Positions 1 through 45,556 of a DNA stretch of 64,000 nt are shown here, piece by piece. This stretch comes from Candidatus Omnitrophota bacterium (GTDB taxonomy: Bacteria; Omnitrophota; Gorgyraeia; Gygaellales; Profunditerraquicolaceae): positions 13,955 through 77,954 of the forward strand of contig JAPLLX010000004.1 of assembly GCA_026387335.1 (NCBI GenBank). Reading direction: 5' to 3'. The notes below the pieces were generated by a model, which saw only the letters and a list, made by a program, of their open reading frames with translations, did no database searches and was not told the origin of the DNA. Positions within the stretch are counted from its first letter, which is position 1. Every line of letters starts with the position of its first letter. The position numbers were made by a program, and so were the translations under genes.

Positions 1-1111
1 GGTGATCCATCTCAGTATCTTGGTAAGCGGTAGCCAGATGGACCTCAGTAACAGGATGCTCATTAAGATCCTGCTCACCTTTGCTATTTAAAAGCTCTTC
101 GTCAATACGAGTGCCTTCGGGAACCGGATTACCGGCAAAAACTATAAAATATGGCTCAGGTAGAGTAGATGCGCCATGCTGGACTACTCCGGCAAGGCCA
201 TATTCTTCCCTAGCTACCTTACCTAACTCGCCTAAAGTATTAAAACCTACCTTGGCCTTGGCTAGCTTACCCTGAGCATCCCTTACGCCGCCATGCTTAG
301 TCCCGGTCTGCACAGCAATCTTGGTTATGGATTCAAGGTCAAGTCCTTCTTCTCGGCTGAGTCTTCGTAATTCAGGGTTATAACCATCCATAAAAGCCCT
401 GAGGTCTTCCACGGTGCTATTTTTCTGTTTGGCTTTATCCAAACCCATACCGATTTCGCCAATCTCACCACCTAAATTTACCACAATGCCTAATTTATCT
501 AAACCTAACCTTCTTTCTTCTTTACGTATATATCTAGTCAACTCTGCTGTTAGCTTATAGTTAAGCTCCTGTTGTTCCTTATGAGTCAACTTATTCCAGT
601 CTACTAACTGAGACAGATCCACGTCTATCTGGTAAAAACCCGCCTCTAGTGCTTCAGTAATGAGTTCCTTTTCATCCTGGATTGCCTTTTCAGGATTCTT
701 TAAATAATCCTTAAGGGCTATCTGGAAGTGATCCCCCTGTAAATACAAGGTCTGGTTATAGCCTTCTTTAATAGCTGCAGCCAGCATTGAAGTAGTAAAT
801 TCAATAGGACGTTGGCCAGTATATTTTATTTCTGATTTGGCAATTTCCAATATAACCTTAGTTACGTTATTCTTAACAGCAGACTTCAATGCTGCCCTGG
901 CAGTATCATAGGCCATACCTCTGATGTTTATAGCCGGAACAGTGTAATGTGTCGGATCTTTTGCCTTTTGTACATATAAATTATGGACAGAACCAAGATT
1001 AATCCCTAGAGAGGCGGCGATACCCTTAATCAGTTGTCGGGATTTATTAACTATCTCTTGATTCGGGTTAAAGGTGGCATCATAGACTAATTGATCAATT
1101 AATACACTTCG
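1..1111 (-). other. Class II fructose-bisphosphate aldolase-like domain of the giant ORF, partial; an estimated ~115 aa of the domain lie beyond the window
   Basis: About 45% identity over ~370 aa to the stand-alone FBA encoded at 30799..32124, for example PAINIRGMAYDTARAALKSAVKNN against PAINLRSMSYDLARAIFRVAAKNN, plus LQGDHFQ, GGEIGEIG, TVEDLRAFMDGY, QTGTKHGG and VQHGASTLPE. Confidence 0.7.
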
Positions 1112-4100
1112 TAAGGCAGGTTCATTTAATATATTATAGCCGTCAGTAGTAACTTCCACTATTCCTGTTAAGGCGGCATCAAGAGCCTTTACGTCAGCGA
1201 AGTTAAGTCGAGGTTGAGCTAAGTCTGGCAATAGAAACTCCCTACCCGAATTTGAAGTAAGAAATAGTACTGCCTCGGGGCTTGCTCTCTTTATACGATT
1301 CTGCGAAGCAATAGGATCCTTGGTCTGGAACTCTGTGCGAATTACAAAAACACTGCCATCAGGAGTAATTGTAAGTGTATTCGTAGTCACCGTTCCTGCG
1401 GCATTATTAAAAGTTACGCGTTGCATTAAATCTGAGAACGTCGGGCCAAAAAACTTCTCCGAAGCTCCGGTTACTGCTGTTATAGCAAAAGTTCCGCTTC
1501 CTTGGAAATCTGCTGAATTGTAAGTTCTTCGCTGGGCATCAGCACTATAGCCCAACGCATCAAACATTCGTAAGTCTTCTTCTGTAAAACTATCGGCGGT
1601 TTGCGGGCTCACATCTTTTGCAGTCATTTTCTCGGAAACAAACCTATGACTAAACTGCCCATTAGGAACTAATGCTGCCACAAGCTCTGCAATAGTAGCC
1701 TCAGCAGAACCGCTCCTGCCGAACACCATCATCTTATATCCATCGAGGTCTAACCCCAATGAAGCCACTGCCCGCGGAGCAAAATCACCGTCGTCAGGGG
1801 TAAGTAACTTAATCCCGGGATATTTTTCTTGCAGTTGCTTGGCATCTTCAATAATTCTTAAATGCCGGCTGTCGCCTGACTGCGTAGGTTGTTTGGCAAG
1901 ATCCTTATCGCGAGAACCTAAAGTTAAAATTACAAGATGATTCATAAAATCTGCGTAGAAGCCTGTAAAGGCAGGGTCTGTTACTTCAATCCCTTTCTGC
2001 CTGGCTAAGGCAACTGCGATTCTGCGTGTGGCAATACTCGGAAGATCAAGAGGTTGAACTCCGGCATCTCTCGGGGCATTAAAACTTACCCCTGCAATAC
2101 GGAATTTATCCCAAACCGTTCTTCTAATTCCGCCTGGCAGATCTTTGAATAAAGCAGCTAACGACCAACTGTTAGTTGCCTGCGTAGCTGCCTCTTTAAC
2201 AATAAGGCCGTTGGTATGCTCAAGCGCGTCACCGGCAAAATAATTAATATTTACGCCTATTTTGCGCAATTCATTGACTTCGGCCTCAAGGCTTTTGAAA
2301 AAGTTTTCCGGGTCAGGGTCCCAATAGCCTTTCGCGTAACCCTTCCAGTAAATACGGCCTCTTTTTAGAGAAACTGCGTCATCTCTTTCTCCCTCATCCG
2401 CAATAACAATTATAGCTTCAAGGGGGTTGGCTTCAATAAAAGAGACTAAGCTTCTTCTGCTAAACTCAACTGCATTGGCATCAGCAATATTCTTTCCCTG
2501 TTTAGTGCCCACGCCTGCATAAAGAATCGAGCCCATAGCTTGGCCGATAGAAGTCTCAATTACTGCTCTTGTAGTAGGTTGCTTTAGGACTTCTTTAGTC
2601 GGGAAATTACCTTGTAACCTTACCACTTTTATTGTACTCTTTTTAAGGCCAAAATCTGTAAGCACCTTCCCAAAAGACGCGGGGATATCTTGATTTTCTA
2701 ATTCTGTGCCTGTTTGTAAAGCTAAGTTGGCGAGTGATTCCTGCGCGGCAGCGGCTTTTCCTTCTGCGGTCATATACGGCAGATAAGACTTAAGGTACTC
2801 AACGAATTGCTGCTTAAAAGCGCTCATATCTGAAGGTTCAACATCGCCTTTCACCACTGTTGCATCCTCCCCGGTAGAAATATTACTGACTACAACACCA
2901 TCAACCGGTAAAACAAATTTATTCTTTAATTCTGGATCAGCCAATAACTTACTCGCAATCTGGACTTGAAGTTGGTCAGGCATAGAATCACCTACTTTCT
3001 TACCCTGAGCTGCCAGAAAAGCAAGCGCCATTCTACCGCCGATTATAAAGAGATCTGTTTCTTTCTTTAAGGAATCAAATAGATCAATCTTAGTGTCAAG
3101 TTTTGCTCCGGCCAAAATAACTACTAAAGGCTTCACAGGATTATTACGGAGTTGTTTTAAGTAAGTATATTCATTTGCTAAACTTAATCCTGCGAATTTC
3201 GTTCCGAGAGCAAAAAATCTGGTGATTGCCTGAACAGAAGCATGAGCACGATGGTCAACCGAAAAGGAATCGTTAACATAATATTTCGCTATTCGGCTTA
3301 ACGCTTGAGCAAAAGCCTCGTTATTTAGTTCTTCGGCTAACCTAAAGCGGAGATTCTCTAAGAAAACAACTTCTCCGTTTTTCTGAGTATTCTGGATAAA
3401 ATCTTCTACCGGCTTACCAATACAATCATCTAATTTATACACCGGTACTCCCAGAAGTCTCTGGAGCTCTTTTGCTACAGGATCAGTCCTGAGCTTCTCA
3501 TCAACCTTTCCATTTGGCCTACCTAAATGAGTAGCTACAATAAGTTTGACTTTCTTGGCTAATAATGCTTGCGCGGTAGGAAGGATTGCCCTGAGCCTAG
3601 AATTATCGGTTATATTTAAATTTGAATCTAAAGGAACATTACCGTCTATGCGTAGAAAGACGGTATCTCCTTCTTTTACATTCTGTAAGAGACTATCAAA
3701 CTGGGAAAGCTCACCTGTAACAGGATCAATTAAAACTTTGACTCCCGGCAGGTTTTCCACTCCAAATTTGAATGCCTCTAAGAATGCTCCGCCGGCCATT
3801 GAGACATAGTCAAATTGATCCCTCTCTTTTTCAGATAATGTCGCTATAGTATCGCCTCCACCTACGATTTTCTTTATTGTTTTAGGCAAACTTAAAACGT
3901 TCTTGGCCGTACCTTTTGTGCCGTAGCTTGTAGATTCTACTTCCGCTACTCCCATAGGCCCATTCCAGAGCACCGTGCCCTTATCTCCAGCAGCTGAAAA
4001 AACCTCCTGCATTCTTTTCATATCAAGCTCCACGCTTGCCGGGCCAATATCCGCAATAACCTTGCCTTTAATGTGGGAAAAGGCATTTTCATAAACTATG

Positions 4101-7100
4101 AGGTTCACCATACGATTGGAGAAACCAGTTTCATTATCATACCAAGTCTCTAACCTGATGATTGTCTGATCAAGCTCATCATCGTAATCAACAATTTCAA
4201 TAGAATTACCATCCACAATAGTAGAAGCAGGATTACCAACAATAGTGGCGGATGTAATCGGATCCTGAGTATAAGCCAAAAGGCCCGCAAATTTATTTTG
4301 GCTGGCTTTTCTAAACGCATTTTGGATCTGTTCTTTAGTCACCTTACCCTTACGTACGACTAACAAGTCAACAACCGAACCTGTAGGGTTAGGAGTACGT
4401 ATTGCCCAACCATCAGATTTTCCGGTTAAGGAAGGGAATATTTTAGCTGCGGTTTTAGCAGCTCCGGTTGAAGCAGGCTCGGCATTACCTAATGCACTCC
4501 TACCACGCACAGGCTCTTTTTTATGCAGGTCTTGCTTGGCAAAATTCTGATCCGTAGTATAACCATGCACAGTAAGCATATCCTGAGAAACAATTCTACC
4601 TTCTATAGGAAGGCCTTCCTGTTCCAATGCGGAAATTTCATTTTCAAACGGTTCATCTAAAACAGCACCTACGGGCATTAAAGCATTAGTAGTGCAGCTG
4701 GCATTATCTTTAGTGAGGGCAGCCCGGGTTGGTTCAACTACACCCAAGACAATAGATTGTCCTACTCCTTCTGCCGGCGCAGTAATAATTACTTTCCCAC
4801 CTTTAATATGCGTAAGGTGAGCCATAGCGTCATCAGCATTCTTTAAATCTCCGGAACTTTCTGCGATAATTTTTATGCCTGCTACATCCCAGGGGAGCTC
4901 TGAAACTGCTTTTCTTTCGTTAACAATCAGGACTTTCTTCCCATTTATATCTAAAACACCTACCAGACTTTTTAATAACCAGTTAATTGAACTTTGCAGC
5001 TCAGCTCGAGGCTTTCCCCATGAAACTAAGAGTTTTTCAAGATAAGGAACAAGCTCTTCTTTCTCCTGAAGCATATACAATCTCTGGGAATCGATCTGAC
5101 CGTTGATAATCCCTTTTACCTGATCTTCTGTATAATTATTTAAAAGTTGAGAGATTTCCTTCTTTAATTGCTTAGGGGTTAAAATAATCCTAGTCACCGG
5201 TTTAGGCGTGGACTGCTGGATTGAATCTGCGGCTAAAAGCCAGGATATGATTAACATGTTGCTTGGGCCATTAATCATCCTGAGGTCAACATTCGGGTCT
5301 CCCTGCATAGCCCAGGCTATGGTCCTGCCTGTTCTACCCGGCCCATTTTCTCCCACAATTGCTGACTGCATCGGCTTACCTTTATATGTAAAGCGGGGCC
5401 GGCTTTTTCCGTCAAGAGACGGAATATAGCTGGAATTAGTATCCAAAAACTTAGGCCTTATAATTTGAGATTGCGCATCTTGAGCCGCGGAAAGAACGCT
5501 TTCAATTTCTTCGGAAATGGTTTGAGAATCTTTAGAGGTAACAATAGACGCAATCTTCCCTTCTTTCATACCATCCAACATTAAAGGAAGCTGGCTTAAG
5601 GCGAAAGTCGTATCCTCGTTATGTAAAACCTGTAGATGAACCATATTTTTTCCCGTAACTTTAGTCTGTTTACCCAAAACAACAATCGGCGCCTGTTTAT
5701 AGGTATCTAAAGAAACTTTCGAGTTATCCTCGGAATAAACAAGCTTACCCCTAAGAGCGCCTTCTGCGGCATCTTTAAAGATTTTGTTTATTGAAGCAAC
5801 ATCCGTATTAGAATTTAAAACCATCTTGACATCTAATATGCAACCGAGCATCTGCGGAGCAAAATGAACCCTTCCCTTGATTCGTCCGGATAAATCAGGA
5901 GAAAACATTTTACCCACATATTCATCTATATCCCTGCTTAAGGCAGGAGCAATATTATTTCCCGAAGAACGCATAAGAACCGGGTCTGGCCCGGAATTAT
6001 CCAAGCCACGCTGTAACGATGAAGGTGGCTGAACATCTGTAAAACTAACACCCCTGATTGTTTCCTGCGGGATAAGAGACAAAACCGGCCTTAAAGCGCT
6101 GACTGCAGTTAAAGCAGGATTCGTAACAATGACAAATTGAGCGCCCTGGCTTTTATGGCTAGCAGCTAACTGAGGGTTTTGGCCTTCAATTACAGCTTGC
6201 GCATTTAATTCCTTCCAAGGAAACTCTTTGGGGTTAGAAATTGCAGAAACCTTTAAAACGAGTTTCCCGTTTCTTCCCAAGCCTTCGGGTAAAACTTGAA
6301 AATTCTTATTAAACCAGTTTCTGAACGCGGGAGTTGCAGAAAAATCTTTGGTTAAAAGATAATAAAGGTTATCGGCAGAAACGCCGTTTACTCCCACTAA
6401 TTCAACGTCTTTACTCTTACCTAAGAGCCATTCACGGATAAGTTCCCGTTCCTGCGCACCGGGATTATTTATCGCAACTTTTACCGGCGAGCTCATGCTT
6501 GCTCTTGTTAATTCGTGTGCTGTAGGAGTCCCCGATGCATCCACTAGAATTCCCTTAAGTGTAGGAAGAAGCGTATCCACTACTGTTGTTATATTGAAAG
6601 TTGCTCCCTGCATTCTCGCGTCTACTTCCAGACCTGTAAGGATTTGACCACCGCTAAAATAACTCCGGATTACCTGTCCGGTAGGAGTACGTACTGTTTC
6701 CTTAATATTATACTCGCCTTGAGCGAAGGATTTTTTATAAGCGTTAAAATAAGTAGATTTAGACCAGGCGGCGGCGGAAGTAAGGCCGGTAAGGTCTTTT
6801 CTGTCAATACGCGAAGCGTATTTACCTTCCTGACCGGTAAAATGAGACTTAAACCAGCGAGAGAGAATGATGGAATAATAGACCTGCCTTAAGGAAGCGT
6901 AACGTTTGGAAAGATTCACTTCTTTGGTTAATTTAGGGATAATTAATTCGCGGATTAACTGGGAAGAATATTCGTTTAACGCCTTAGCCCGGCTGTCTTT
7001 AAAGCTATAGGTAGCCGAATCCTTAAGAAAATCCTGCTCCAGCATGACCTTTAAGGTCGCCTTATAGATATAGGCGCTGTCGTTGGTCTGACGGACAATG

Positions 7101-7654
7101 ATTTCATTGGGGACTATCCAGGGACGGGTCAAGGTAGGAATGGTTACTTCCTGGTAGCCATAGAGTTCTTCGGCCTTCTTATAAAGCCTGTTCCAGTATT
7201 CCCGGCCTTCGGGAGTTTCGGGTGAAGTAAATTGGGCGGTATCTTTCTTTAGCTGCAGGTCTGTCTCAAGCATGATTTTGCCTACGTCAGTCCTGGCTAA
7301 GTAGTCATCTATAATGTTATCTTCGGAATCCGGGCGCAGGTTTACCCAAAACTTGTCGCTGGGAAGATTTATACCTACTAGAAAATAATTTAATAATTCC
7401 TGGGTAGCGGCGTCAAGCTGTTTTCCCTTAAGCTCCTTGATATCGCCTTTATCCAACATTACCTTAATATTATCATTCTGGCTGTCAAAGGAGAAAAAAC
7501 GGATATGTACAGGCCTAAACCTATCCTGGACAAAGCCACCGGACATCTTAGATAAATGGCCGGCCAGATTAAGTTCGGTTGCGATACTGGCGAAACCTAT
7601 CTGCTGGAAGACCAAACACAGGGAAATTAGCAGGGAAGAAATTTTACGCCACAT
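1..7654 (-). CDS. Giant secreted multi-domain protein, at least 2551 aa in the window, with its C-terminus running off the window at position 1. Order of parts: signal peptide, ~390 aa unassigned, degenerate GAPDH-like, intact GAPDH-like, circularly permuted PGK-like, GlpX-type FBPase-like, class II FBA-like (partial)
   Basis: Hand translation of the reverse strand from ATG at 7654..7652 (AGGAGG 8 nt upstream) continues without a stop to position 2. The ORF track shows no competing long ORF in 1..7650. Motifs read directly: MWRKISSLLISLCLVFQQIGFASIA; NASCTTNALMP...TVHGYTTDQ...WYDNETGFSNRMVNL (GAPDH); RIDGNVP...THLGRPNG...LENLRFR...NDSFSVDHRAHAS...GGRMALAFL and WNGPMGV...GGGDTIA...MAGGAFLE (PGK); GKNIADANAVE...IADEGERDD...DPDPEN...TPDDGDFA (GlpX); PAINIRGMAYD...LQGDHFQ...QTGTKHGG...VQHGASTLPE (class II aldolase). 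Confidence 0.8.
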   Translation of the reverse strand, partial: MWRKISSLLISLCLVFQQIGFASIATELNLAGHLSKMSGGFVQDRFRPVHIRFFSFDSQNDNIKVMLDKGDIKELKGKQLDAATQELLNYFLVGINLPSDKFWVNLRPDSEDNIIDDYLARTDVGKIMLETDLQLKKDTAQFTSPETPEGREYWNRLYKKAEELYGYQEVTIPTLTRPWIVPNEIIVRQTNDSAYIYKATLKVMLEQDFLKDSATYSFKDSRAKALNEYSSQLIRELIIPKLTKEVNLSKRYASLRQVYYSIILSRWFKSHFTGQEGKYASRIDRKDLTGLTSAAAWSKSTYFNAYKKSFAQGEYNIKETVRTPTGQVIRSYFSGGQILTGLEVDARMQGATFNITTVVDTLLPTLKGILVDASGTPTAHELTRASMSSPVKVAINNPGAQERELIREWLLGKSKDVELVGVNGVSADNLYYLLTKDFSATPAFRNWFNKNFQVLPEGLGRNGKLVLKVSAISNPKEFPWKELNAQAVIEGQNPQLAASHKSQGAQFVIVTNPALTAVSALRPVLSLIPQETIRGVSFTDVQPPSSLQRGLDNSGPDPVLMRSSGNNIAPALSRDIDEYVGKMFSPDLSGRIKGRVHFAPQMLGCILDVKMVLNSNTDVASINKIFKDAAEGALRGKLVYSEDNSKVSLDTYKQAPIVVLGKQTKVTGKNMVHLQVLHNEDTTFALSQLPLMLDGMKEGKIASIVTSKDSQTISEEIESVLSAAQDAQSQIIRPKFLDTNSSYIPSLDGKSRPRFTYKGKPMQSAIVGENGPGRTGRTIAWAMQGDPNVDLRMINGPSNMLIISWLLAADSIQQSTPKPVTRIILTPKQLKKEISQLLNNYTEDQVKGIINGQIDSQRLYMLQEKEELVPYLEKLLVSWGKPRAELQSSINWLLKSLVGVLDINGKKVLIVNERKAVSELPWDVAGIKIIAESSGDLKNADDAMAHLTHIKGGKVIITAPAEGVGQSIVLGVVEPTRAALTKDNASCTTNALMPVGAVLDEPFENEISALEQEGLPIEGRIVSQDMLTVHGYTTDQNFAKQDLHKKEPVRGRSALGNAEPASTGAAKTAAKIFPSLTGKSDGWAIRTPNPTGSVVDLLVVRKGKVTKEQIQNAFRKASQNKFAGLLAYTQDPITSATIVGNPASTIVDGNSIEIVDYDDELDQTIIRLETWYDNETGFSNRMVNLIVYENAFSHIKGKVIADIGPASVELDMKRMQEVFSAAGDKGTVLWNGPMGVAEVESTSYGTKGTAKNVLSLPKTIKKIVGGGDTIATLSEKERDQFDYVSMAGGAFLEAFKFGVENLPGVKVLIDPVTGELSQFDSLLQNVKEGDTVFLRIDGNVPLDSNLNITDNSRLRAILPTAQALLAKKVKLIVATHLGRPNGKVDEKLRTDPVAKELQRLLGVPVYKLDDCIGKPVEDFIQNTQKNGEVVFLENLRFRLAEELNNEAFAQALSRIAKYYVNDSFSVDHRAHASVQAITRFFALGTKFAGLSLANEYTYLKQLRNNPVKPLVVILAGAKLDTKIDLFDSLKKETDLFIIGGRMALAFLAAQGKKVGDSMPDQLQVQIASKLLADPELKNKFVLPVDGVVVSNISTGEDATVVKGDVEPSDMSAFKQQFVEYLKSYLPYMTAEGKAAAAQESLANLALQTGTELENQDIPASFGKVLTDFGLKKSTIKVVRLQGNFPTKEVLKQPTTRAVIETSIGQAMGSILYAGVGTKQGKNIADANAVEFSRRSLVSFIEANPLEAIIVIADEGERDDAVSLKRGRIYWKGYAKGYWDPDPENFFKSLEAEVNELRKIGVNINYFAGDALEHTNGLIVKEAATQATNSWSLAALFKDLPGGIRRTVWDKFRIAGVSFNAPRDAGVQPLDLPSIATRRIAVALARQKGIEVTDPAFTGFYADFMNHLVILTLGSRDKDLAKQPTQSGDSRHLRIIEDAKQLQEKYPGIKLLTPDDGDFAPRAVASLGLDLDGYKMMVFGRSGSAEATIAELVAALVPNGQFSHRFVSEKMTAKDVSPQTADSFTEEDLRMFDALGYSADAQRRTYNSADFQGSGTFAITAVTGASEKFFGPTFSDLMQRVTFNNAAGTVTTNTLTITPDGSVFVIRTEFQTKDPIASQNRIKRASPEAVLFLTSNSGREFLLPDLAQPRLNFADVKALDAALTGIVEVTTDGYNILNEPALRSVLIDQLVYDATFNPNQEIVNKSRQLIKGIAASLGINLGSVHNLYVQKAKDPTHYTVPAINIRGMAYDTARAALKSAVKNNVTKVILEIAKSEIKYTGQRPIEFTTSMLAAAIKEGYNQTLYLQGDHFQIALKDYLKNPEKAIQDEKELITEALEAGFYQIDVDLSQLVDWNKLTHKEQQELNYKLTAELTRYIRKEERRLGLDKLGIVVNLGGEIGEIGMGLDKAKQKNSTVEDLRAFMDGYNPELRRLSREEGLDLESITKIAVQTGTKHGGVRDAQGKLAKAKVGFNTLGELGKVAREEYGLAGVVQHGASTLPEPYFIVFAGNPVPEGTRIDEELLNSKGEQDLNEHPVTEVHLATAYQDTEMDH
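1333..2572 (-). other. GlpX-type (class II) fructose-1,6-bisphosphatase-like domain with ~45- and ~20-aa insertions
   Basis: GKNIADANAVEFSRRSL aligns to GDKNTADGAAVNAMRIML; IIVIADEGERDDAVSL to TIVIGEGEIDEAPML; YWDPDPEN to AVDPIEGT; SFNAP to FLNAP; KLLTPDDGDFAPRAVAS to VFAIPDGDVAASIL; MMVFGRSGSAEATIAELVAALVPNG to VLYGIGGAPEGVVSAAVIRALDG; GTFAITAVTGAS to VIFSATGITKG. The metal-ligand Asp and Glu positions are retained. Confidence 0.5.
2845..4066 (-). other. Phosphoglycerate kinase-like domain, circularly permuted (C-terminal third first, then the N-domain up to the permutation point)
   Basis: The first segment IADIGPASVE...LWNGPMGVAEVE...IVGGGDTIATL...MAGGAFLEAFKFGVENLPGV matches the PGK C-terminal region. 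It is followed directly by RIDGNVP...ITDNSRLRAILPT...ATHLGRPNG...VVFLENLRFRLAEE...NDSFSVDHRAHAS...ILAGAKLDTKIDL...IIGGRMALAFL...LPVDGVVV, which is the PGK N-domain and the start of the C-domain. Confidence 0.65.
4090..5365 (-). other. Intact GAPDH-like domain of the giant ORF, with a ~90-aa insertion in the NAD-binding part
   Basis: AIVGENGPGRTGR...INGKKVLIVNER...LPWDVAGIKIIAESSG...KGGKVIITAPAEG...NASCTTNALMPVGAVLDE...TVHGYTTDQ...ASTGAAKTAAKIFPSLTGK...TPNPTGSVVDLLV...WYDNETGFSNRMVNL. The catalytic Cys and His are present. Confidence 0.7.
5460..6490 (-). other. Degenerate, probably non-catalytic GAPDH-like domain of the giant ORF
   Basis: VKVAINNPGAQER replaces the Rossmann INGFGRIGR. NGKLVLKVSAISNPKEFPWKELNAQAVIEGQ...AASHKSQGAQFVIVTNPA aligns to the GAPDH NAD domain. 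TNPALTAVSALRPV sits where SCTTNCLAP would be, so there is no Cys. SFTDVQPP replaces TVHAxTATQ, so there is no His. GRIKGRVHFAPQMLGCILDVKM aligns to GKLTGMAFRVPTxNVSVVDL. This stretch was re-translated carefully (6300..5821). Confidence 0.55.
7577..7654 (-). other. Sec-type signal peptide (or N-in signal anchor) of the giant ORF
   Basis: M-W-R-K n-region, 18-residue hydrophobic core ISSLLISLCLVFQQIGFA, then SIA. Confidence 0.6.
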
Positions 7655-7728
7655 TTTTACATCCTCCTTTTTTCTGGTTCCTCATTATTAAATACTTTTT
7701 AAAATTCCTTTTAATTCCACAAAAAAGA

Positions 7729-11125: not shown

Positions 11126-12307
11126 TTAGTCATAGTTCTCCTTTAAAAGCTCTGGCTTTAAATCTATAAACTCAATCCCCTTCTCCTTGCCGTTCATCAG
11201 CCGGAATATTTCTTTTATAGAATCCTTAGTGATATCGCGTCCGCCTAAACCTACCACAAAACTGTTTATACTTTGAGGTTTCTTCGTCTTGCCGGAAAAT
11301 ACAGCCTTAACTTCCACGTGAAGAGGAGCAAATGACCCTAAAGAGAGGGCCCGATCAATAACCGCGACTTTAGGGATATTTTTTAAAGCAGTGTATATCT
11401 CATCAACTGGAAAAGGCCTTAAAGATGTAACCTTAAGTAAACCCACTTTTTTACCCTTGACCCTTAATTCATCAATGACCTCTTTTATTGTACCGCAGAC
11501 TGAGCCCATAGCCACAATCACTTTTTCAGCATCCTTAAGCTGATAACCCTCAACTAAGCCATTATAAGTCCTGCCGAACACTTTTGAAAATTCCGCAGTA
11601 AGTTTAGGGATAAGAGCTAAAGCTTCTTTATGTGTTTCATTAAGGGCATAGCGAGCCTCCATATAATATTCAGGGTCAACTAACGGACCCAAGGTCAGAG
11701 GATTCTCTACATCTAATTTATAAGGGGGCTTATAAGGCGGTAAAAATTTATCTACCTGTTCCTGCGTGGGCATATCTACTGTCTCTAACCCGTGAGTAAG
11801 AATAAAACCATCCATACAGACCATCACCGGAAGCATTATGGATTTATCTTCGCCTAATTTGTAAGCGATAAGATGTAGATCCACTACTTCCTGTATATCT
11901 TCGGCATGGAACTGAATCCAGCCTGAATCGCGCAGGGAGACCGCATCCTGATGGTCGTTCCAGATATTTATGGGAGCGGATATCGCCCGGGCAGCAGTAG
12001 TCATAATTACAGGTAAACGCATGCCGGCAATATTATAAAGGACTTCGGCCATATAAAACAACCCTTGAGAACTGGTAGCGGTATAAGCGCGCACCCCTGT
12101 TGCCACTGCGCCTAAAACTACGGAGGCCGCGGAATGTTCGCTTTCTACATTAACAAATTGGGCATTCAGCTGGCCGTCAGCGACTATCTGGGCAAGTCCT
12201 TCCACAATATGAGTCTGAGGAGTAATGGGGTAGGCGGAGATTACTCCGGGCTTACAGCGCTTGATAATCTCAGCTACCGCCATTGAACCTTCTAATAATT
12301 CTTTCAT
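11126..12307 (-). CDS. porA: Pyruvate:ferredoxin oxidoreductase alpha subunit
   Basis: 393 aa; typical PorA N-terminus (MAVAEIIKRCKPGVISAYPITPQTHIVE). Confidence 0.85.
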   Translation of the reverse strand: MKELLEGSMAVAEIIKRCKPGVISAYPITPQTHIVEGLAQIVADGQLNAQFVNVESEHSAASVVLGAVATGVRAYTATSSQGLFYMAEVLYNIAGMRLPVIMTTAARAISAPINIWNDHQDAVSLRDSGWIQFHAEDIQEVVDLHLIAYKLGEDKSIMLPVMVCMDGFILTHGLETVDMPTQEQVDKFLPPYKPPYKLDVENPLTLGPLVDPEYYMEARYALNETHKEALALIPKLTAEFSKVFGRTYNGLVEGYQLKDAEKVIVAMGSVCGTIKEVIDELRVKGKKVGLLKVTSLRPFPVDEIYTALKNIPKVAVIDRALSLGSFAPLHVEVKAVFSGKTKKPQSINSFVVGLGGRDITKDSIKEIFRLMNGKEKGIEFIDLKPELLKENYD

Positions 12308-13198: not shown

Positions 13199-13828
13199 TT
13201 ATTCAACAGTGTTATTTGCCTCAACTTTTTCTCCTTTAGGGCCTAATCTGGCCTGCCTGGCCTTAAGGAAATCCTTGGCTTCAGTAGCATCTATTACCCC
13301 ATCGCCATTTTTATCAAATTTAGCCTCTTCCGGGGTGTCCACGATTGAACGGGCCTGTATTTTTTCCTGTTCGTCGACTACACCATCCTTGTTCGTATCC
13401 AGCCGGGCTTTCCTTCTTTCTCTGAATTGATTGGCTTCTGTTTCGTCAACTACGCCATCATTATTCGTATCCATCCTTGCTTCTTTAGGAGTGTTTACTC
13501 TGGCTTTTTCTTCCTGATTAGCTTGCGTAGCCTCCACTTTATCCACCCTACCATCATTATTCGTATCCATCCTCGCTTCTTTAGGAGTGTTTACCTGTGC
13601 GCGGGCTTGATTAGCTTCTACTCTGCCCACTCTACCGTCATTATTCGTATCCATCCTCGCTTCTTTCGGGGTATTTACCACTGAACGCTGTTTAACCTCC
13701 CCGCCCTTGTTTCTATCGGCGGGTTGAGCTTTTTGCTGCATTGCCGGTTTAGCCGGTTTAGCCGGCTGAGCATAGGCAATAGAAACAAAAAATGCCATGA
13801 CCAAAACCAACCCTAAGCTTTTAAACAT
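13199..13828 (-). CDS. Secreted protein with five EF-hand-like calcium-binding loops in tandem repeats
   Basis: Signal peptide MFKSLGLVLVMAFFVSIAYA. Loops DTNNDGRVGRVE, DTNNDGRVDKVE, DTNNDGVVDETE, DTNKDGVVDEQE and DKNGDGVIDATE each fit the DxNxDGxIxxxE pattern. Repeated unit VNTPKEARMDTNNDG. Confidence 0.6.
   Translation of the reverse strand: MFKSLGLVLVMAFFVSIAYAQPAKPAKPAMQQKAQPADRNKGGEVKQRSVVNTPKEARMDTNNDGRVGRVEANQARAQVNTPKEARMDTNNDGRVDKVEATQANQEEKARVNTPKEARMDTNNDGVVDETEANQFRERRKARLDTNKDGVVDEQEKIQARSIVDTPEEAKFDKNGDGVIDATEAKDFLKARQARLGPKGEKVEANNTVE
13440..13690. repeat. About three ~87-bp near-identical tandem DNA repeats inside the EF-hand gene (core attattcgtatccatcctcgcttctttaggagtgtttac)
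   Basis: Near-identical 40-mers at ~13470, ~13552 and ~13636, read directly. Confidence 0.7.
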
Positions 13829-19447: not shown

Positions 19448-20167
19448 TTACAGCAAATAATCTTTCTTTATGCGCCGGACACTTCTAAAGATATTCTTTT
19501 TTATTTCCGGACAGGTCTTTTTTAAATCCTGGATAATTTTACCCATCTTTGCGCGGTTAGAGGTAACCGAATTTGGGCAAACGCAGGTATCGTGGGGGAT
19601 CTTTTCTTCTTTAGCAAAGCGTTTAATCATATATTCTTCAACATAGGCCAGCGGCCTGATCAGGGTGATCTTACCCTTAAATAATTCCTGCTTCGGCTTC
19701 ATTGCCGAGATTTCTCCCTGAAAGAATAGATTTAATAAAATCGTCTCAATGATATCATCCATATGGTGGCCCAGGGCAACTTTAGTGCACTTAAGCCGGT
19801 CAGCCACTTCAAATAGGGCCTTTCTTCTATTCCAGGAACACCAGAAACAATTTATATCTTTCTTCTTGGTTTTACGCAAGGTATCGACTTTTTCAATATG
19901 GTATTCAACATTCGCCTGCTTAAAATACCTTTCCAGCTTTTTAGATATTGATTTAGGATAACCCATATCAATATGCACCGCCACTAAATTGTATTTTAAC
20001 GGGACAAACGCGCGCCTATCGTTTAAGATACGCAGGAGTGTCAGGCTATCCTTGCCGCCGGATACGGCCACGGCAATCTTATCGCCCTCAGAGAGCATAT
20101 TATAATCTATGATTGCCCTGCCTATGCGTTTGGAGATATAAAATTCCGGTCCCTGTAAGATTCCCAT
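19448..20167 (-). CDS. ttcA: PP-loop ATPase, tRNA 2-thiocytidine synthase TtcA-like
   Basis: SGGKDS PP-loop and CxxC pairs. Confidence 0.7.
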   Translation of the reverse strand: MGILQGPEFYISKRIGRAIIDYNMLSEGDKIAVAVSGGKDSLTLLRILNDRRAFVPLKYNLVAVHIDMGYPKSISKKLERYFKQANVEYHIEKVDTLRKTKKKDINCFWCSWNRRKALFEVADRLKCTKVALGHHMDDIIETILLNLFFQGEISAMKPKQELFKGKITLIRPLAYVEEYMIKRFAKEEKIPHDTCVCPNSVTSNRAKMGKIIQDLKKTCPEIKKNIFRSVRRIKKDYLL

Positions 20168-20526
20168 TATTTGGCAAAGATTGTATAGAGCGCAATGATT
20201 AATAAAAATATTCCAAAGGCTTTTCTTAAAACAAGGTTGGAAAGCATTTCCGCCATATTGGCTCCCAGAAGCCCGCCGATCAAGAACCCGATACAGATAA
20301 ACGCGGCGATATAAAAATGCACGTGTCCACTATGATAATACTTCATTACCGCCAGAAGCCCTATCGGTAGGAGCATGATCGCCAGAGTGGTCCCCTGCGC
20401 CTCATGCTGCGACAAACCTACCAAAAAAACCAAAGCCGGAATAAGTATCGTCCCCCCGCCTATCCCGAACATTCCGGAAAGTGTGCCCGCCGTCAACCCT
20501 AAAACAAGATACAAAATTTCTTTCAT
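20167..20526 (-). CDS. TSUP (TauE/SafE) family membrane transporter, half-size
   Basis: GxGGG motif (FGIGGGTILIPAL); 119 aa with 4 TM segments. Confidence 0.6.
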   Translation of the reverse strand: MKEILYLVLGLTAGTLSGMFGIGGGTILIPALVFLVGLSQHEAQGTTLAIMLLPIGLLAVMKYYHSGHVHFYIAAFICIGFLIGGLLGANMAEMLSNLVLRKAFGIFLLIIALYTIFAK

Positions 20527-20547
20527 AATTTATCCTTTCCGCTCATT

Positions 20548-20765
20548 TATTCTATAGCTATTTCGCTCTCAGGGTATTGTTCGCGTGCGAAATTTTTCGC
20601 CGTGTGCTACGGTTTACGACTCCTTCCGGCAGCGCAGTGTTCCTCACGCATAAGGGTATTGCCTATACTCGCCGTAAAGCCTTGCACACACGTAGCTAAT
20701 AGCTTGGCCGAAAAATTTCTAATTGCCCGCTTACAATACCCTTCGGCAAAATATCTATAGAATAC
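20548..20765. repeat. Long imperfect inverted repeat (~55-bp arms, ~85% identical, ~100-bp centre); looks like a MITE or a long RNA hairpin
   Basis: Left arm tattctatagctatttcgctctcagggtattgttcgcgtgcgaaatttttcgcc aligned by eye to the reverse complement of the right arm, tattctatagatattttgccgaagggtattgtaagcgggcaattagaaatttttcggcc. Confidence 0.55.
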
Positions 20766-20766
20766 A

Positions 20767-20932
20767 TTAGCGGATGGATTGGCTTGTTCCGGAGCAGGAC
20801 GTAACGCAGGCGAAGCGGGCAGGGTTGCCTACAATATAAGTCCCGGCAGAGCGAAGCCGAGTAGCCGAGCGGGATTTTCCACGCTGGGGAAAATCACGCG
20901 TTCCTGCGAGGAACAAGACAAACCAGACGCTA
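20767..20932 (+). ncRNA. Copy 1 of a ~165-nt conserved structured element (candidate sRNA or repeat element); copy 2 at 45341..45505
   Basis: About 90% identical to copy 2. An internal perfect hairpin GATTTTCC-acgct-GGGGAAAATC is conserved. Terminal stems show compensatory changes between copies (cttgttcc/ggaacaag against cttgtttc/gaaacaaa; gga..tcc against ggg..ccc). Confidence 0.45.
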
Positions 20933-20936
20933 TGAA

Positions 20937-22742
20937 TTATATTCTTCTGGAATCAGCGACCAGTTTGCGTATTTCTTTAGTGACCGGATGCTTCATTAAA
21001 TCTTCAAGGGAAAGCGGGATTTTGAGCGACCAGTTCTTGTCGCTTATTGTACCGGGGGTATTGAATCTATATTGATACGCGTCACCGGACAAAACATCAT
21101 CCAGATACAAAAGGTCAATTATTGTATTTATACAGAATAGGGAACTCGATTCCAGGTTTAATTTTAAGACAGCCCGGAATATTTCTTTATCACATTTCTC
21201 ACGCATCGGGCCGAGCAGACCCAAATGCTTCCAGAGTTTTTCTTTCTCCCCGCATGTATTCTCATATAAACCCATTAAGACGTGCAACCTATCTTTAGGG
21301 ACAGTCCCCTGCGGGGACAGTCCCTTGATTAACTTATCAACCGAATCAATTCCTTCTTTCCAGCGCAATCTCCCATGCTGAGAACGGACCGCGTCAAAAA
21401 GCTCAAGTTTTACCCGGTCAAAATCAATCCCCGCTTCAACGCACTTTCTGCGGAATAGATCCTCATCCACTGTCCCAGCCTCATTCTCCCACCAGGCAGG
21501 CCAGTTAGTCGTATCATGCGTGGAAAGCATAGCGACAGAAAACTTACGATACTCCTCGGGTTTTAAGAAATCGCGCTTAATCTTCCAATCCTTAACCCAA
21601 CGCTGCACGTCATTACCCGGTATCTTTAATTTTTCTAAAGTTTCGGTGCAGGCCTTAGGGATTACCCCTAAATCTTCGGCGCACAAAAACATTTTTGTGC
21701 TCTCAAGCATAACCTCTAATATCTTCTGGCCATGCGCCTGCCACTCGGATTCATTGACCGGATCAAAAAATCCGTTTAAGCCCTGATTTTCAATAGGTTC
21801 GTTATAAGGAATACTCCAGATACGAAATAAACCGACTACATGATCAATCCTGATGATATCGTAAAAATTCTCGGCGAATTTTAATTTCTCTTTTAAGTAT
21901 TTGTATCCATCAGCCGCGATTTTTCCCCAATTATAGGTAGGCATTCCCCAGCGTTGGCCGCGGGCAGCATACATATCCGGCGGCGCGCCGGCGGCAAATT
22001 CCAATTTGAAAAATTCCGGATGGCTCCAGACATCGCTTGAGTCGCGGGAGACCAAGATAGGCAGGTCTCCGTTGATAAAAACTTTCTTCTGCCGGGCGTA
22101 ATCCTTAACAGCCTTAAATTGTTCAAAGAGCTTCCATTGTACCCACTCTTGAAATTTAATTTCCTGGGCATTAGTTTTACGGAAATTTTCTAAGGCCGCC
22201 TTATCCCGGTTTCTAAACTCTACCGGCCAATCATACCAAGCCCTATTTTCCCATTTTGCTTTAAGAGTTTTAAACAAAGCGTAATCTAAGAGCCAATAAC
22301 TGTTCTCGCTCCTGAAACGGCTAAAAAGTTCCGGACTAGCGGCGGCGTCCAATAAGAAAATTTCCCGCAATATGCGTATTTTTTCATTCTTCATCCCGTA
22401 ATCCACATATCGCTTATCCGTTTTTAAGTTTTTACGCAAGGCTTCGATTTGCCTTTTAATGGATTTGTTTTTAGGCAGGGGTAAATGGCTAAGAGAAATA
22501 TAAAGCGGCTCGAGCGCGTTCGCGCTTAAAGCGTCATACGGACAGAATAAGCCTCCCATATCATTCATCGGTAAAAGCTGGATAATGGAATTGCCCGTAG
22601 GAGTTGCCCAATCAATGACTGATCTTAAATCATTCAGGTCACCTGCGCCAAAACTATTTTTTGAATAGACTGCGAATAACGGGACTAATACCCCTGAACT
22701 TTTCTTAGTTAGAAAAGATTGCGGCTGGTTTGACTGCGGCAT
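20937..22742 (-). CDS. malQ: 4-alpha-glucanotransferase (amylomaltase, GH77)
   Basis: 601 aa; GVLVPLFAVYS...GDL N-terminus typical of GH77. Confidence 0.75.
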   Translation of the reverse strand: MPQSNQPQSFLTKKSSGVLVPLFAVYSKNSFGAGDLNDLRSVIDWATPTGNSIIQLLPMNDMGGLFCPYDALSANALEPLYISLSHLPLPKNKSIKRQIEALRKNLKTDKRYVDYGMKNEKIRILREIFLLDAAASPELFSRFRSENSYWLLDYALFKTLKAKWENRAWYDWPVEFRNRDKAALENFRKTNAQEIKFQEWVQWKLFEQFKAVKDYARQKKVFINGDLPILVSRDSSDVWSHPEFFKLEFAAGAPPDMYAARGQRWGMPTYNWGKIAADGYKYLKEKLKFAENFYDIIRIDHVVGLFRIWSIPYNEPIENQGLNGFFDPVNESEWQAHGQKILEVMLESTKMFLCAEDLGVIPKACTETLEKLKIPGNDVQRWVKDWKIKRDFLKPEEYRKFSVAMLSTHDTTNWPAWWENEAGTVDEDLFRRKCVEAGIDFDRVKLELFDAVRSQHGRLRWKEGIDSVDKLIKGLSPQGTVPKDRLHVLMGLYENTCGEKEKLWKHLGLLGPMREKCDKEIFRAVLKLNLESSSLFCINTIIDLLYLDDVLSGDAYQYRFNTPGTISDKNWSLKIPLSLEDLMKHPVTKEIRKLVADSRRI

Positions 22743-40142: not shown

Positions 40143-40215
40143 GCGGGAGGCGGGATTCGAACCCGTGACATCAACCTTGGCAAGGTTGCGCTCTACCAGC
40201 TGAGCTACTCCCGCG
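40143..40215 (-). tRNA. tRNA-Gly (GCC)
   Basis: Cloverleaf read on the reverse strand: GCGGGAG acceptor, anticodon loop CUUGCCAAG, TPsiC arm GGGTTCGAATCCC. CCA is not encoded. Confidence 0.85.
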
Positions 40216-40224
40216 TTACCTAAC

Positions 40225-40287
40225 GCGCACCGACGCAATTAGCGCACAAGCGCACGCCGACGCAATACCTGTTAGCGTCGGGCGCTC
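40225..40287. repeat. CCGACGC hairpin family, second locus: CGCCGACGC-AATACCTGTTA-GCGTCGGGCG at 40256..40285, plus a partial copy GCGCACCGACGCAATTAGCGC at 40225..40245, between tRNA-Gly and tRNA-Leu
   Basis: Same stem and loop architecture as 9647..9676. Confidence 0.4.
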
Positions 40288-40334
40288 CTATTAACTGCCG
40301 GGTACTGCTTGAATACTTTATCGAAAAATTTAAG

Positions 40335-43368: not shown

Positions 43369-45159
43369 CTATTTTCGTAACTCTTGCATTGAATAAAGCC
43401 GCTTATATAAACCATCCCTCTTTAAAAGCTCTTCATGGGGCCCGGATTCGGCAATAGCGCCTTTGTCCAAGACCACAATTTTATTCGCGCTTCTGACTGT
43501 AGAAAGCCTGTGGGCGATGACAAATACCGTACGACCCTGAATAAGCCTGTCTAAAGCGTCCTGGACTATCCGTTCTGACTCCGAATCCAGCTGGGAAGTA
43601 GCCTCATCCAGGATTAAAATAGGCGGATTCTTAAGCAGGGCCCGGGCTATAGCGATCCTCTGGCGTTCGCCTCCTGAAATACGCATACCCCTATCCCCGA
43701 TAACCGTAGCATAGCCTTGGGGCAGGTGACTGATAAAATCATGGGCATTAGCCTGCAGCGCTGCCTGTTTAATCTCTTCATCTGTCGCCCCGGGTTTACC
43801 GTAAGCGATATTCGCCTTAATGGTATCATTAAAAAGTATGGTCTCCTGGGTAACAATCCCGACGAGTTGGCGTAACGACTTTAGGCTAACATCTTTTATA
43901 TCCGTACCATCAATTAAAACCCTCCCCTTTTTAGGGTCATAGAAACGCGGGATTAAATCCAAAAGCGTGGTCTTGCCTGTCCCGCTGGGCCCGACGATAG
44001 CCAGGACTGAACCATACGGGACATCTAAACTTACCCCTTTAAGAACCTGATTATCGCCATAACTAAACCAGACATTCTCAAAGACAACATTATTTTTAAA
44101 TCCTTTTAATTCTTTAACCGTAAGGGATTCCACTACGCTGGGCTCTGTTTCCAAGACTTCATAGATGCGCTCGCTGGCGGCTACCGCCTGCTGATTTAAA
44201 GAATTTACCTGGCTTAATTTCTTAAAAGGCCGGATAGTGGATAGAAGCGCGCCGAGGAATAATCCAAAGACGCCGAAAGAGATTTTTCCGGAGATGACTT
44301 CCCTCCCCCCTAAGAAGAATATAATTACGCCCGCTATACAGCCTAAGATCTCGGTTGCCGGGCTTAAAAGCAGCATACGTTTAATAGATTTCATGGAAAC
44401 ACGGTAATAATCATTATTTACCTTATTGAATTTCTTTATTTCGTAATCCTCCATATTAAAACCTTTAACAATACGCGCGCCGATAATCGTCTCGTAAAGT
44501 ATGGAGTTTGTATCCGCCATCTTCTCCTGCGAAGTCCTGGATAACTTTCTAAGTTTCTTGCCTACGACAGCGATTAAGTAGCCCAGGATCGCCAAAGGAG
44601 GAACGATAAAAATAACGAATTTGGCGTAAATAAACATGGTCAGCGAGAAGAATATGACTACCTGCGCCCCCTGATATACGATATCGGTTGAGCCATAAGA
44701 AACAGCGTTCTCTACCAGCTTGACGTCATTAGTGATGCGCGAAATCATCTCTCCGCCGCGTTTATGGGTAAAATAATCCAAAGAAAGCGACTGGAATTTA
44801 GCGTAAAGCCTGGCCTTTATATCCCTTACAATACGCTGGCCAATATCCGACATAAGATAGCTCTGCAGGAAGTTAAAAAACCCTTTAAGCACAAAGAGCA
44901 ATACAATGCCTACGGCCATATAGTTCAAAAGCACTACCGGTTCAATACTATTGAGCTTATCCACAAAATTAGCTAAAAACGCAGGTAGTTTGGCGGGTAT
45001 GATGATTTTTCTATTGGTAAGGACCTTATCCGCCAGCGGGACCATCATAGCTAAAGAAACCCCGTCAAATATGGCGGAAAAGACCATACAAACGGTAGCC
45101 AGGGAAAACATCCCTAAATATGGCTTAATAAATCGCAGTAACTTCAAGTAATCACGCAT
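43369..45159 (-). CDS. msbA: ABC transporter permease/ATPase, MsbA-like lipid exporter
   Basis: 6-TM domain plus Walker A GPSGTGKTT, LSGGERQR signature and Walker B ILILDEAT. ATG 45159 with a GGAGGAG RBS is preferred over the track start at 45294, which would read through a repeat element. Confidence 0.8.
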   Translation of the reverse strand: MRDYLKLLRFIKPYLGMFSLATVCMVFSAIFDGVSLAMMVPLADKVLTNRKIIIPAKLPAFLANFVDKLNSIEPVVLLNYMAVGIVLLFVLKGFFNFLQSYLMSDIGQRIVRDIKARLYAKFQSLSLDYFTHKRGGEMISRITNDVKLVENAVSYGSTDIVYQGAQVVIFFSLTMFIYAKFVIFIVPPLAILGYLIAVVGKKLRKLSRTSQEKMADTNSILYETIIGARIVKGFNMEDYEIKKFNKVNNDYYRVSMKSIKRMLLLSPATEILGCIAGVIIFFLGGREVISGKISFGVFGLFLGALLSTIRPFKKLSQVNSLNQQAVAASERIYEVLETEPSVVESLTVKELKGFKNNVVFENVWFSYGDNQVLKGVSLDVPYGSVLAIVGPSGTGKTTLLDLIPRFYDPKKGRVLIDGTDIKDVSLKSLRQLVGIVTQETILFNDTIKANIAYGKPGATDEEIKQAALQANAHDFISHLPQGYATVIGDRGMRISGGERQRIAIARALLKNPPILILDEATSQLDSESERIVQDALDRLIQGRTVFVIAHRLSTVRSANKIVVLDKGAIAESGPHEELLKRDGLYKRLYSMQELRK

Positions 45160-45229
45160 TTTTCGCTCCTCCTCAAAAGGAAAAGTATTGTAGCATATCT
45201 TCCCACCCCAAGCAACTTTTTTATTGCCT

Positions 45230-45324
45230 AATAAATGACACTGGCAAGTTTCCCGCTCAGGTCGGTTTTTTAACGCCATGGCTAAAACCTCCATTCGCGG
45301 ATAAACTTGCCAGTGTCATTTATT
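45230..45324. repeat. Perfect 22-bp inverted repeat (AATAAATGACACTGGCAAGTTT / AAACTTGCCAGTGTCATTTATT) with a 51-nt spacer that holds a nested GGTTTT..GCCATGGC..AAAACC palindrome
   Basis: Read directly. In the divergent msbA | Gfo-lpxB promoter region, immediately upstream of copy 2 of the 165-nt element. Confidence 0.7.
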
Positions 45325-45340
45325 ATAAGTATAAGTATCA

Positions 45341-45505
45341 TAGCGGATGACTTGGCTTGTTTCGGAGCAGGGCGTAACGCAGGCGGAGCGGGCAGGGTTG
45401 CCCACAATAAATGTCCCGGCAGAGCGCAGCCGAGTAGCCGAGCGGGATTTTCCACGCTGGGGAAAATCGTGCGGCCCTGCGAGAAACAAAACAAGGCAGG
45501 CGCTA
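45341..45505 (+). ncRNA. Copy 2 of the ~165-nt conserved structured element
   Basis: See 20767..20932. Lies 50 nt upstream of the Gfo/Idh/MocA start. Confidence 0.45.
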
Positions 45506-45556
45506 CTAAAGAAGATTATAGTTGCAATAAAGCAGGCGGTTTGCTATTATTCCCTT

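Follow-up and report, generated by a model that had tools for sequence, protein, structure and literature searches.

Three families of structured intergenic modules form hairpin-first cassettes at variable sites in one clade of Omnitrophota

Why should a 165-nt element stand directly behind a long inverted repeat at two separate places in a bacterial genome? The question is raised by a 64,000-nt stretch of DNA from a Candidatus Omnitrophota bacterium (contig JAPLLX010000004.1), here called the window. The Omnitrophota are an uncultivated and little understood phylum. A first-pass annotation, made from the sequence alone, had noted this arrangement at both loci and had put it down either to the footprint of a small non-autonomous mobile element or to a conserved hairpin-plus-RNA regulatory module in divergent promoter regions. 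The arrangement is confirmed here and recurs in relatives, where it resolves into three families of structured intergenic modules, named A for the 165-nt element, B for the hairpin family of locus 1, and C for the hairpin family of locus 2. Their order and orientation are fixed, and the cassettes which they form occupy a few variable intergenic hot spots, at which one close relative has the cassette while another lacks it, holds a different insert or carries it the other way round. The interpretation which we favor, with a probability of about 0.6, is that A, B, and C make up a mobile or recombining mosaic of modules within one Omnitrophota clade.

The two copies of A in the window, which define locus 1 and locus 2, are 89% identical over 165 nt, and in an alignment of the two loci the similarity begins and ends at the boundaries of A; the B and C palindromes share no sequence in this alignment. 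The modules are as follows.

20768..20932, plus strand: A copy 1, 181 bits with the covariance model, antisense to both flanking genes.
45341..45505, plus strand: A copy 2, RNA-like and structured, ~165 nt long, 182 bits with the covariance model.
20538..20774, plus strand: module B, an imperfect hairpin of ~240 nt, with the core of the hidden Markov model at 20559-20754.
45229..45325, plus strand: module C, with perfect 23-bp arms at 45229-45251 and 45303-45325 and a 51-nt interior.
45326..45340, plus strand: linker from C to A, AT-rich TAAGTATAAGTATCA, with a possible -10-like TATAAG 17 nt after TTGCCA in the C arm.

Module A has a GC content of 58-61% (against 44% for the genome) and the termini TTTAGCGG at the 5' end and CCGCTAAA at the 3' end. 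The hairpin at locus 2, described at first as a perfect 22-bp repeat with a 51-nt spacer, is indeed perfect and has that spacer, with arms of 23 nt and not 22. It folds at -46 kcal/mol (z = -9.2), ends 15 nt 5' of A, and carries in its interior the conserved motifs of the family, TTTCCCGCTCAGGTCG ... GGCTAAAACCTCCATTCGC. For locus 1 the long imperfect hairpin, which extends over about 20532-20779, likewise stands (-94 kcal/mol, z = -8.4), and in place of the reported arms of ~55 bp the repeat finder gave arm segments of 29, 18, and 11 nt; the core sequence of B reads GCGAAATTTTTCGCCGTGTGC...CGCCGTAAAGCCTTGCACACA...GCCGAAAAATTTCTAAT and the first 7 nt of A already belong to its outermost 3' arm. 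To the left of B, TCCGCTCA at 20538-20545 pairs with the first bases of A, TAGCGGA (20768-20774), and resembles the 3' end of A, CCGCTA, as if it were a remnant of another A end beyond B. A third echo of the 5' motif of A, which had been proposed at the inner edge of a C arm (cattcgcggataaacttgcc), did not hold up: its local alignment score of 8-9 is reached by 1.7-7.5% of shuffles, and other C-A composites do not retain it.

The distribution of the modules was addressed in Omnitrophota contigs, ~1 Mb in total and given L numbers here, which were retrieved via two neighboring marker genes. Of these records L041 and L042 are one and the same, and L019 is the JGI twin of L011. Exact look-ups of proteins encoded in the window returned no record, and the nearest protein homologs of the flanking genes belong exclusively to Candidatus Omnitrophota metagenome-assembled genomes (MAGs). 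At locus 2 the relatives include a 98% identical strain (L011/L019) and an 89% relative (L012/L013), and at the site of locus 1, next to a GH77 gene, a sister strain (L099, 96% protein identity) as well as L104 (78%) and L100 (76%). A first covariance model, trained on five copies of A and run over 889 kb of these contigs, produced 24 further A-like matches, i.e., 22 distinct ones once L041 and L042 were merged and a weak fragment in L062 was set aside; scores went up to 182 bits on the A strand and reverse-strand matches did not exceed 38 bits. With additional copies in L099 and L104, beyond the 889-kb search, the family totals in the ~1 Mb come to ~26 copies of A, 16 of B, and ~12 of C (the last from an nhmmer profile). 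Per 64 kb the count for A is two in the window, the relatives having been sampled around two marker genes only. All copies of A fall into three genomic sites, namely upstream of an oxidoreductase gene, downstream of lpxB, and between the GH77 gene and a PP-loop gene.

Rfam 15 at gathering thresholds found three tRNAs and nothing else in the whole window; at E <= 10 A was unmatched at both loci and B drew only generic long-hairpin (miRNA-type) noise, and at E <= 1 A, B, and C were all unmatched in six related loci. A genome-collection scan with a 20-mer from the most conserved block of A returned 10 matches to the word only, a word specific to the subfamily of the window. A metagenome scan with a 24-mer of A, also a word of this subfamily, returned none, which is accounted for by the sister strain's A already differing at three positions inside that 24-mer. 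Six-frame peptides from A, aimed at spurious gene calls, had no match in a protein database. Among viral contigs a 17-mer of A gave five chance matches, a B word none, and a family-level gapped pattern 11 chance matches in coding DNA, none of which was confirmed by the covariance model; BLAST against phage and plasmid collections found nothing similar to the modules. A full-text literature search found no paper tying Omnitrophota to structured RNA motifs or hairpin repeats.

Mapping of the three families uncovered a grammar of order and orientation. In about 80% of A copies the module directly 5' of A is B, C, or B with a C arm, oriented like A and mostly 8-19 nt away; in terms of counts, a hairpin module lies directly 5' in ~19 of the ~23 A copies with readable upstream sequence, in many genomes and at all three sites. 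B is found directly 5' of A and co-oriented with it in 10 of its 16 copies (nhmmer), with a gap of 8-16 nt in seven cases and of 65-76 nt where the two are separated by a C arm or by other sequence, and the same position is taken by C in 8 of its ~12 copies. None of the mapped B and C copies was placed 3' of A or opposed to it. The order B, C 3' arm, A occurs in L041, L046, and L104, and in L093 a different, perfect 26-bp hairpin lies directly 5' of A. The cassette exists in the forms B-A, C-A, and B plus C arm plus A, always with the hairpin first on the strand of A, and A can switch its hairpin partner.

The four-helix fold of A is closed by a long helix which joins both ends (consensus TTTAGCGGG...CCCGCTAAA), and its further parts are a second and an inner helix and, at an inner junction, two hairpins. 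The inner helix alternates between a GC-rich version, AGGC/GCC, and an AU-rich one, AAAUUU/AAAUUU, and the two hairpins vary in length between copies. The invariant unpaired stretches are GAGCGGGCA, AGAGCGA, and CCGAGCG, together with a C.CGC.GGGG hairpin loop. In a structure-blind test, for which 19 copies were aligned with MAFFT only and no structure guided the alignment, 86.4% of the cells were paired versus 35-46% with slid partners, and compensatory changes were present in 27 of the 47 pairs and in all four helices, including the internal hairpins. The covariation score was 0.378 versus 0.05-0.11 in the slid controls and was reached by none of 500 shuffles; across five measures, the observed value was reached by 0/500 shuffles on four. 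An alignment fitted to the model agrees, and over both alignments there are 27-32 compensatory pairs and 86-88% pairing (~40% when slid). U-G pairs at two positions are kept in 16 of 19 copies, and in 19 of 19 the A strand is more stable than its complement, by a mean of 8 kcal/mol. The fold of A is under selection as a single strand of one polarity, of which RNA is the simplest reading.

The two hairpin families are conserved in a different manner. In C the arms and two internal motifs are conserved around a center of 0 to ~190 nt; the family also occurs at the locus-2 site in L039, L032, and L033, and no open reading frame (ORF) or peptide is conserved among its copies. A small opposite-strand ORF starting from the conserved GCGAATG was rejected, its peptides not being conserved, and a sigma-54 reading of the TGGCA arms, made by eye, fails across copies. 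Members of the B family measure ~190-240 nt, with a conserved core and outer arms which vary between copies yet remain complementary. Solo copies of B are mostly found in a tRNA spacer and are co-oriented with the tRNA genes: the sister strain L011 carries an 89% identical B in the spacer from tRNA-Leu to tRNA-Lys, which in the window is 34 nt long and free of B. A promoter inside B, TTGCAC-17-TCTAAT, was discarded since insertions, as judged by eye from the alignment, appear to break the spacing in ~6 of 15 copies, and the conservation of these hexamers is better explained by structure.

The variability of the occupied sites is seen at locus 2, which lies between housekeeping genes, an ABC transporter on the minus strand and, on the plus strand, a Gfo/Idh/MocA oxidoreductase followed by lpxB. 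Two further features are needed here.

45228..45230, repeated at 45506-45508, no strand assigned: CTA, which brackets C-A in comparison with the empty site TTATTGYCTAAA.
45522..45550, plus strand: oxidoreductase promoter-like site, TTGCAA-17-TATTAT, TG-extended, its end 6 nt 5' of the ATG (45557).

The 89% relative L012/L013 has an empty site, in which TTATTGTC is joined to TAAAATTATAG, and the 98% identical strain L011/L019 lacks A and has, exactly where the window has C-A, a 56-nt GC-rich hairpin, GGCACACCGGGC...GCCCGGGTGTTGCC. This hairpin (L011 9884-9939, equal to L019 9899-9954) has no second copy in the fetched loci. Among ~60 relatives the shortest version of this intergenic region measures 75 nt and the longest 2212 nt. 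The bracketing of the C-A insert by CTA (or TA) is short, AT-rich, and seen in one instance, and it may be due to chance. The promoter-like site is unchanged in relatives with the empty site and in those with C-A, and since this conserved site of the gene itself lies 3' of A, A is outside the oxidoreductase mRNA. No Shine-Dalgarno sequence precedes the oxidoreductase gene, and this lack, like the 6-nt distance from the promoter-like site to the ATG, is found in all aligned relatives; from its sequence the oxidoreductase-lpxB operon appears to be leaderless. It should be noted that the longest ORF of the ABC transporter (43369-45294, minus strand, 641 aa) takes its start codon, an ATG, from within module C, which means that the cassette can cause false N-terminal extensions; the real start is at ~45159, has a GGAGGA ribosome-binding site, and agrees with the 596-aa gene calls in relatives. 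In other genomes this hot spot and that of locus 1 contain small accessory genes (L022 9323-9736, L040 8104-9729, L020 8533-9923, L105 3361-4811, and L101 7883-9141), which encode prepilin-type N-methyl proteins, a nucleotidyltransferase and HEPN-like pair, a DUF6036 protein, a 381-aa secreted protein, and an XRE-type regulator. The products of the larger inserts are pilin-like, toxin-antitoxin-like, or regulators, and neither an integrase nor a transposase can be seen among these genes.

At locus 1 the GH77 4-alpha-glucanotransferase gene on one side and a short TauE-like ORF on the other share the minus strand, so it is no divergent promoter region; that description is true of locus 2 and is not supported as the common setting of the cassettes.

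20167..20526, minus strand: TauE/SafE-like ORF, 119 aa, matching only the first half of the Pfam model.

This ORF, which sits between B and the PP-loop gene and is absent there in L099, L100, and L104, is variable cargo of the hot spot. The 3' end of A copy 1 lies 4 nt from the GH77 stop codon (20937-20939, minus strand), and in both the window and L104 the stop codon is followed by 4 nt and then by A and B on the opposite strand. In the sister strain L099, B and then A are on the strand of the genes, i.e., the cassette is flipped relative to the window, so that B-A occurs in opposite orientations between strains whose flanking proteins are 96-98% identical. That the A copies of these two strains differ by 14% speaks for a replacement and against a mere flip; no invertase was seen at the loci examined. 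Other content occupies the GH77 site in L100, L101-L103, and L105, and A and B are absent there in L100 and L101-L103. In L100 a perfect ~20-bp palindrome, CATCAGCGGGCCCTGCCGCTTAAGCGGCAGGGCCCGCTGATG, is found at 11807-11975 instead of B-A.

The relationship between copies of A does not follow that of their hosts. The A of L099 at locus 1 is 92% identical to the window's A at locus 2 and only 86% identical to its A at locus 1. The hosts L076 and L093 are 74% identical in protein and their A copies 91%, while L046 and L050 are 97% identical in protein with A copies at 81%; the copy of L032 downstream of lpxB (L032b) is 94% identical to that of L056 upstream of the oxidoreductase. Four-fold degenerate sites of the neighboring gene are saturated (25-53% identical), and A copies at the same site remain 65-91% identical. 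The similarity of A is uncoupled from host divergence, and A is both constrained and exchanged, because it is conserved past saturated sites yet does not track its hosts.

These features are brought together most simply by the mosaic of modules named at the outset. The cassette would be a self-contained, horizontally exchanged unit and no regulator of the adjacent genes, and it may be moved, or may itself move, by recombination at hairpin-rich hot spots. A would act as an RNA, transcribed from the hairpin toward A, a direction supported by B being co-oriented inside a tRNA operon in relatives. Of the two suggestions made in the first-pass annotation, the mobile-element footprint is borne out in part by the polymorphism, the empty sites, the flip, and the uncoupling from the host, with the correction that a mosaic of three families replaces the single element; of the regulatory module, the conserved hairpin and the structured element remain and a regulation of flanking genes is not supported, since the oxidoreductase keeps its own promoter 3' of A, and A is found antisense and in both orientations.

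Several points weigh against this interpretation. About four to five A copies have no recognizable upstream hairpin (L022, L037, L077, L032b, and possibly L078). G-U pairs exceed A-C combinations at the paired positions of A by 67 to 33, only about 2:1, and a function as single-stranded DNA would be consistent with these data too; transcription of A is deduced solely from its strand-specific pairing. No conserved promoter was found at a fixed distance 5' of the A copies examined: -10-like hexamers occur in the AT-rich linkers at -2 to -17 from A, some copies have none, and in linkers of other copies (8-19 nt, AT-rich) no such hexamer keeps a fixed distance. The linker site at 45326..45340 was not called in a promoter scan of the window. 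A dedicated A promoter proposed by eye (TTGCCA-17-TATAAG at locus 2, TAGAAT or TATAAT at some B-A junctions) is a weak candidate at most, as its position is not conserved across copies. There is no terminator-like site 3' of A on its strand. The strand opposite A folds more stably in 14 of 15 B copies and 7 of 9 C copies, and G-U counts leave the strand of both families undecided; since B and C favor the opposite strand in this way, a single transcript through hairpin and A is not secure. Folding-energy asymmetry was itself rejected as a guide to the strand of B and C, as the G-U counts do not confirm it and the orientation of B in the tRNA operon argues otherwise. None of the ~26 A copies has a transposase, recombinase, or reverse transcriptase gene in its vicinity, the neighbors being housekeeping genes, and no clear target-site duplication was found at the copies examined. 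Finally, the confinement to hot spots holds for the sample available and is in part an effect of the sampling, because every related locus was fetched via two neighboring genes.

A rather unlikely alternative is that A, B, and C are separate miniature inverted-repeat transposable elements (MITEs), mobilized by a transposase in trans, and that what we describe as structure is their terminal and subterminal inverted repeats. The ends of A are inverted repeats in most copies and can be read as flanked by TA; the presence/absence polymorphism, the empty site, and the possible CTA or TA duplication would all be expected, as would nearly identical A copies in distant hosts or at other sites (the pairs L032b-L056 and L076-L093). 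The perfect arms of 23-26 bp in the C of the window and in the hairpin of L093 are also like those of young MITEs. The inverted ends do not discriminate between a MITE and an RNA-like fold, because the same pairs form the closing helix, and the TTA/TAA at the ends of A itself is palindromic and indistinguishable from the inverted repeat; being mutual reverse complements, these triplets are part of that repeat and not a proven duplication. What separates the two accounts is the interior of A, where compensatory changes reach internal hairpins far from the ends, and where invariant unpaired junction nucleotides and strand-specific U-G pairs would not be expected from repeats recognized as double-stranded DNA. 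Same-site copies of A, moreover, retain 65-84% identity while neutral sites are saturated, very few sites are occupied instead of scattered ones, and no parent insertion sequence (IS) or transposase with shared termini was seen in the window or in the ~1 Mb of related loci.

It is also conceivable, and in our judgment improbable, that A is the RNA or single-stranded part of a new small mobile element without a protein, which integrates beside the 3' foot of DNA hairpins. A would then keep a ribozyme- or guide-like branched fold under selection. Integration at the foot of a hairpin would account for the unrelated hairpins (B, C, and that of L093) which all lie directly 5' of A, and for nearly identical A copies beside different hairpins in distant hosts.

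Very unlikely, to our mind, is a role of the modules as folded single-stranded DNA recombination sites, similar to attC or to the ends of IS200/IS605, with A being read as DNA by a strand-specific recombinase and the modules marking hot spots of cassette exchange. The strand-specific conservation of structure would fit, as would the C arms conserved around a variable center as in attC, the cassette-typical small accessory genes at the same hot spots in relatives, and the occurrence of the cassette in both orientations. The ends of A and C, however, have no boxes of the GTTRRRY/RYYYAAC type, and A is branched and 165 nt long while known attC sites are single hairpins of 57-141 nt. Neither an integrase nor an HUH transposase is nearby and no tandem cassette array was seen; B lies within the tRNA operon in the transcribed orientation.

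That A might be a riboswitch-like cis-regulatory leader of the oxidoreductase-lpxB operon, with the hairpin as its expression platform or promoter, can hardly be maintained. At the site between the ABC transporter and the oxidoreductase, 12 of 13 copies do face the oxidoreductase and end ~18-140 nt (mostly 44-60) before its start, and the conserved junction nucleotides and covarying stems are aptamer-like. The remaining copy, in L069, belongs to a cassette inverted at this same site, A is absent from the 98% sister strain and most relatives, and the conserved promoter-like site 3' of A is unchanged in relatives without it. Downstream of lpxB ~10 copies lie in either orientation and face gene ends, copy 1 of the window and the copy of L104 are antisense to both neighbors, and about half of all A copies are not upstream of a co-oriented gene. 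As to a coincidental adjacency of unrelated repeats in long intergenic regions, the unrelated sequences of the two palindromes and a motif echo at chance level would allow for it, and it can be dismissed because the arrangement recurs in related contigs far above chance, in one orientation, at short and similar distances and at three sites, and because both further copies and empty sites were found.

Some other features of the window may be recorded. One ORF of at least 2560 aa on the minus strand (1-7681) runs off the start of the window and may belong to the giant genes that have been reported in this phylum. A 75-nt unit occurs three times in tandem at 13425-13679, with 76-84% identity and a spacing of 84-96 nt, within a 209-aa minus-strand ORF (13199-13828), where it probably encodes a protein domain present in several copies; for the syntenic gene of L099 there are faint matches to EF-hand, dockerin, and Excalibur. 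The spacer between tRNA-Gly and tRNA-Leu (40215-40334, compared with L011 4728-4799) has ~50 nt more in the window than in L011, and this surplus includes repeated GCGCAC/CGACGCAAT-like words and small palindromes; it is one more minor difference between the strains within the tRNA cluster.

What emerges is a new and well-supported family of structured-RNA-like elements, accompanied by two hairpin families, together with a defined grammar of modules in which the hairpin precedes A and with concrete hot spots at which close strains differ. Should A be expressed, it would represent a new class of noncoding RNA (ncRNA) with a gene that behaves as mobile DNA does; should it act as DNA, a strand-specific recombination system not recognized so far would be indicated. 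Either way the modules are useful as markers of genome plasticity in Omnitrophota MAGs, and they are a potential source of mis-annotation.

How do these modules compare with known systems? Orphan ncRNA motifs of the Rfam type (HEARO/IscB omega RNA, GOLLD, and ROOL) resemble A in having a fold backed by covariation, a high GC content in an AT-richer genome, hairpins whose lengths vary at fixed positions, and a patchy distribution among strains which suggests a link to mobile DNA; A differs in being unmatched in Rfam 15 and in its 5' hairpin partner, which is unusual. Unlike retron ncRNAs, IS110 bridge RNAs, and TnpB-IscB omega RNAs, no copy of A has an IscB, TnpB, IS110 recombinase, or reverse transcriptase gene beside it. 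The attC sites and CALIN share with the modules strand-specific folded sites, conserved arms around a variable center, and small accessory genes which come and go, and differ by their R and L box consensus, which is lacking at the ends of A, B, and C as read directly, by the integrase and array, neither of which was seen in the loci examined, and by being shorter and unbranched in comparison with A.

More is shared with the interspersed repeats. BIME/REP elements of enterobacteria and pseudomonads are, like the cassette, intergenic mosaics of a few palindromic modules in fixed relative orientations and differ between strains at one intergenic site; they occur between convergent and divergent genes and within operons, as the modules do, and can work at the RNA level, as 3'-end stabilizers, and at the DNA level. 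REPs are simple hairpins of 20-40 nt, however, in alternating short units, whereas the modules described here measure 97-240 nt and do not alternate, A being a 165-nt branched structure with an invariant junction and B a hairpin of 190-240 nt; the two are not similar in sequence, the loci examined show no RAYT (TnpA-REP) gene, and the copy number looks low, at few sites, as sampled. ERIC/IRU, Correia (CREE), RUP, and BOX elements, which are hairpin-forming and MITE-like, resemble the modules in their size of 100-250 nt, their inverted termini, the long hairpins which they form on transcription, and their presence/absence differences between strains; Correia elements can carry promoter elements, and BOX is modular (boxA-boxB-boxC). 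No related IS and no firm target-site duplication was found for the modules, which sets them apart from elements of the ERIC/Correia type. A is distinguished from all four by its covariation across several helices, its conserved U-G pairs, and its slow evolution relative to neutral sites, and these features point to a specific fold being maintained by selection and not to an inserted copy in decay. The mosaic repeats of the BIME/REP, ERIC, Correia, and BOX types are the closest analogs, and A, a much more elaborate RNA-like module with a branched, slowly evolving, and strand-specific fold, has no counterpart in them.

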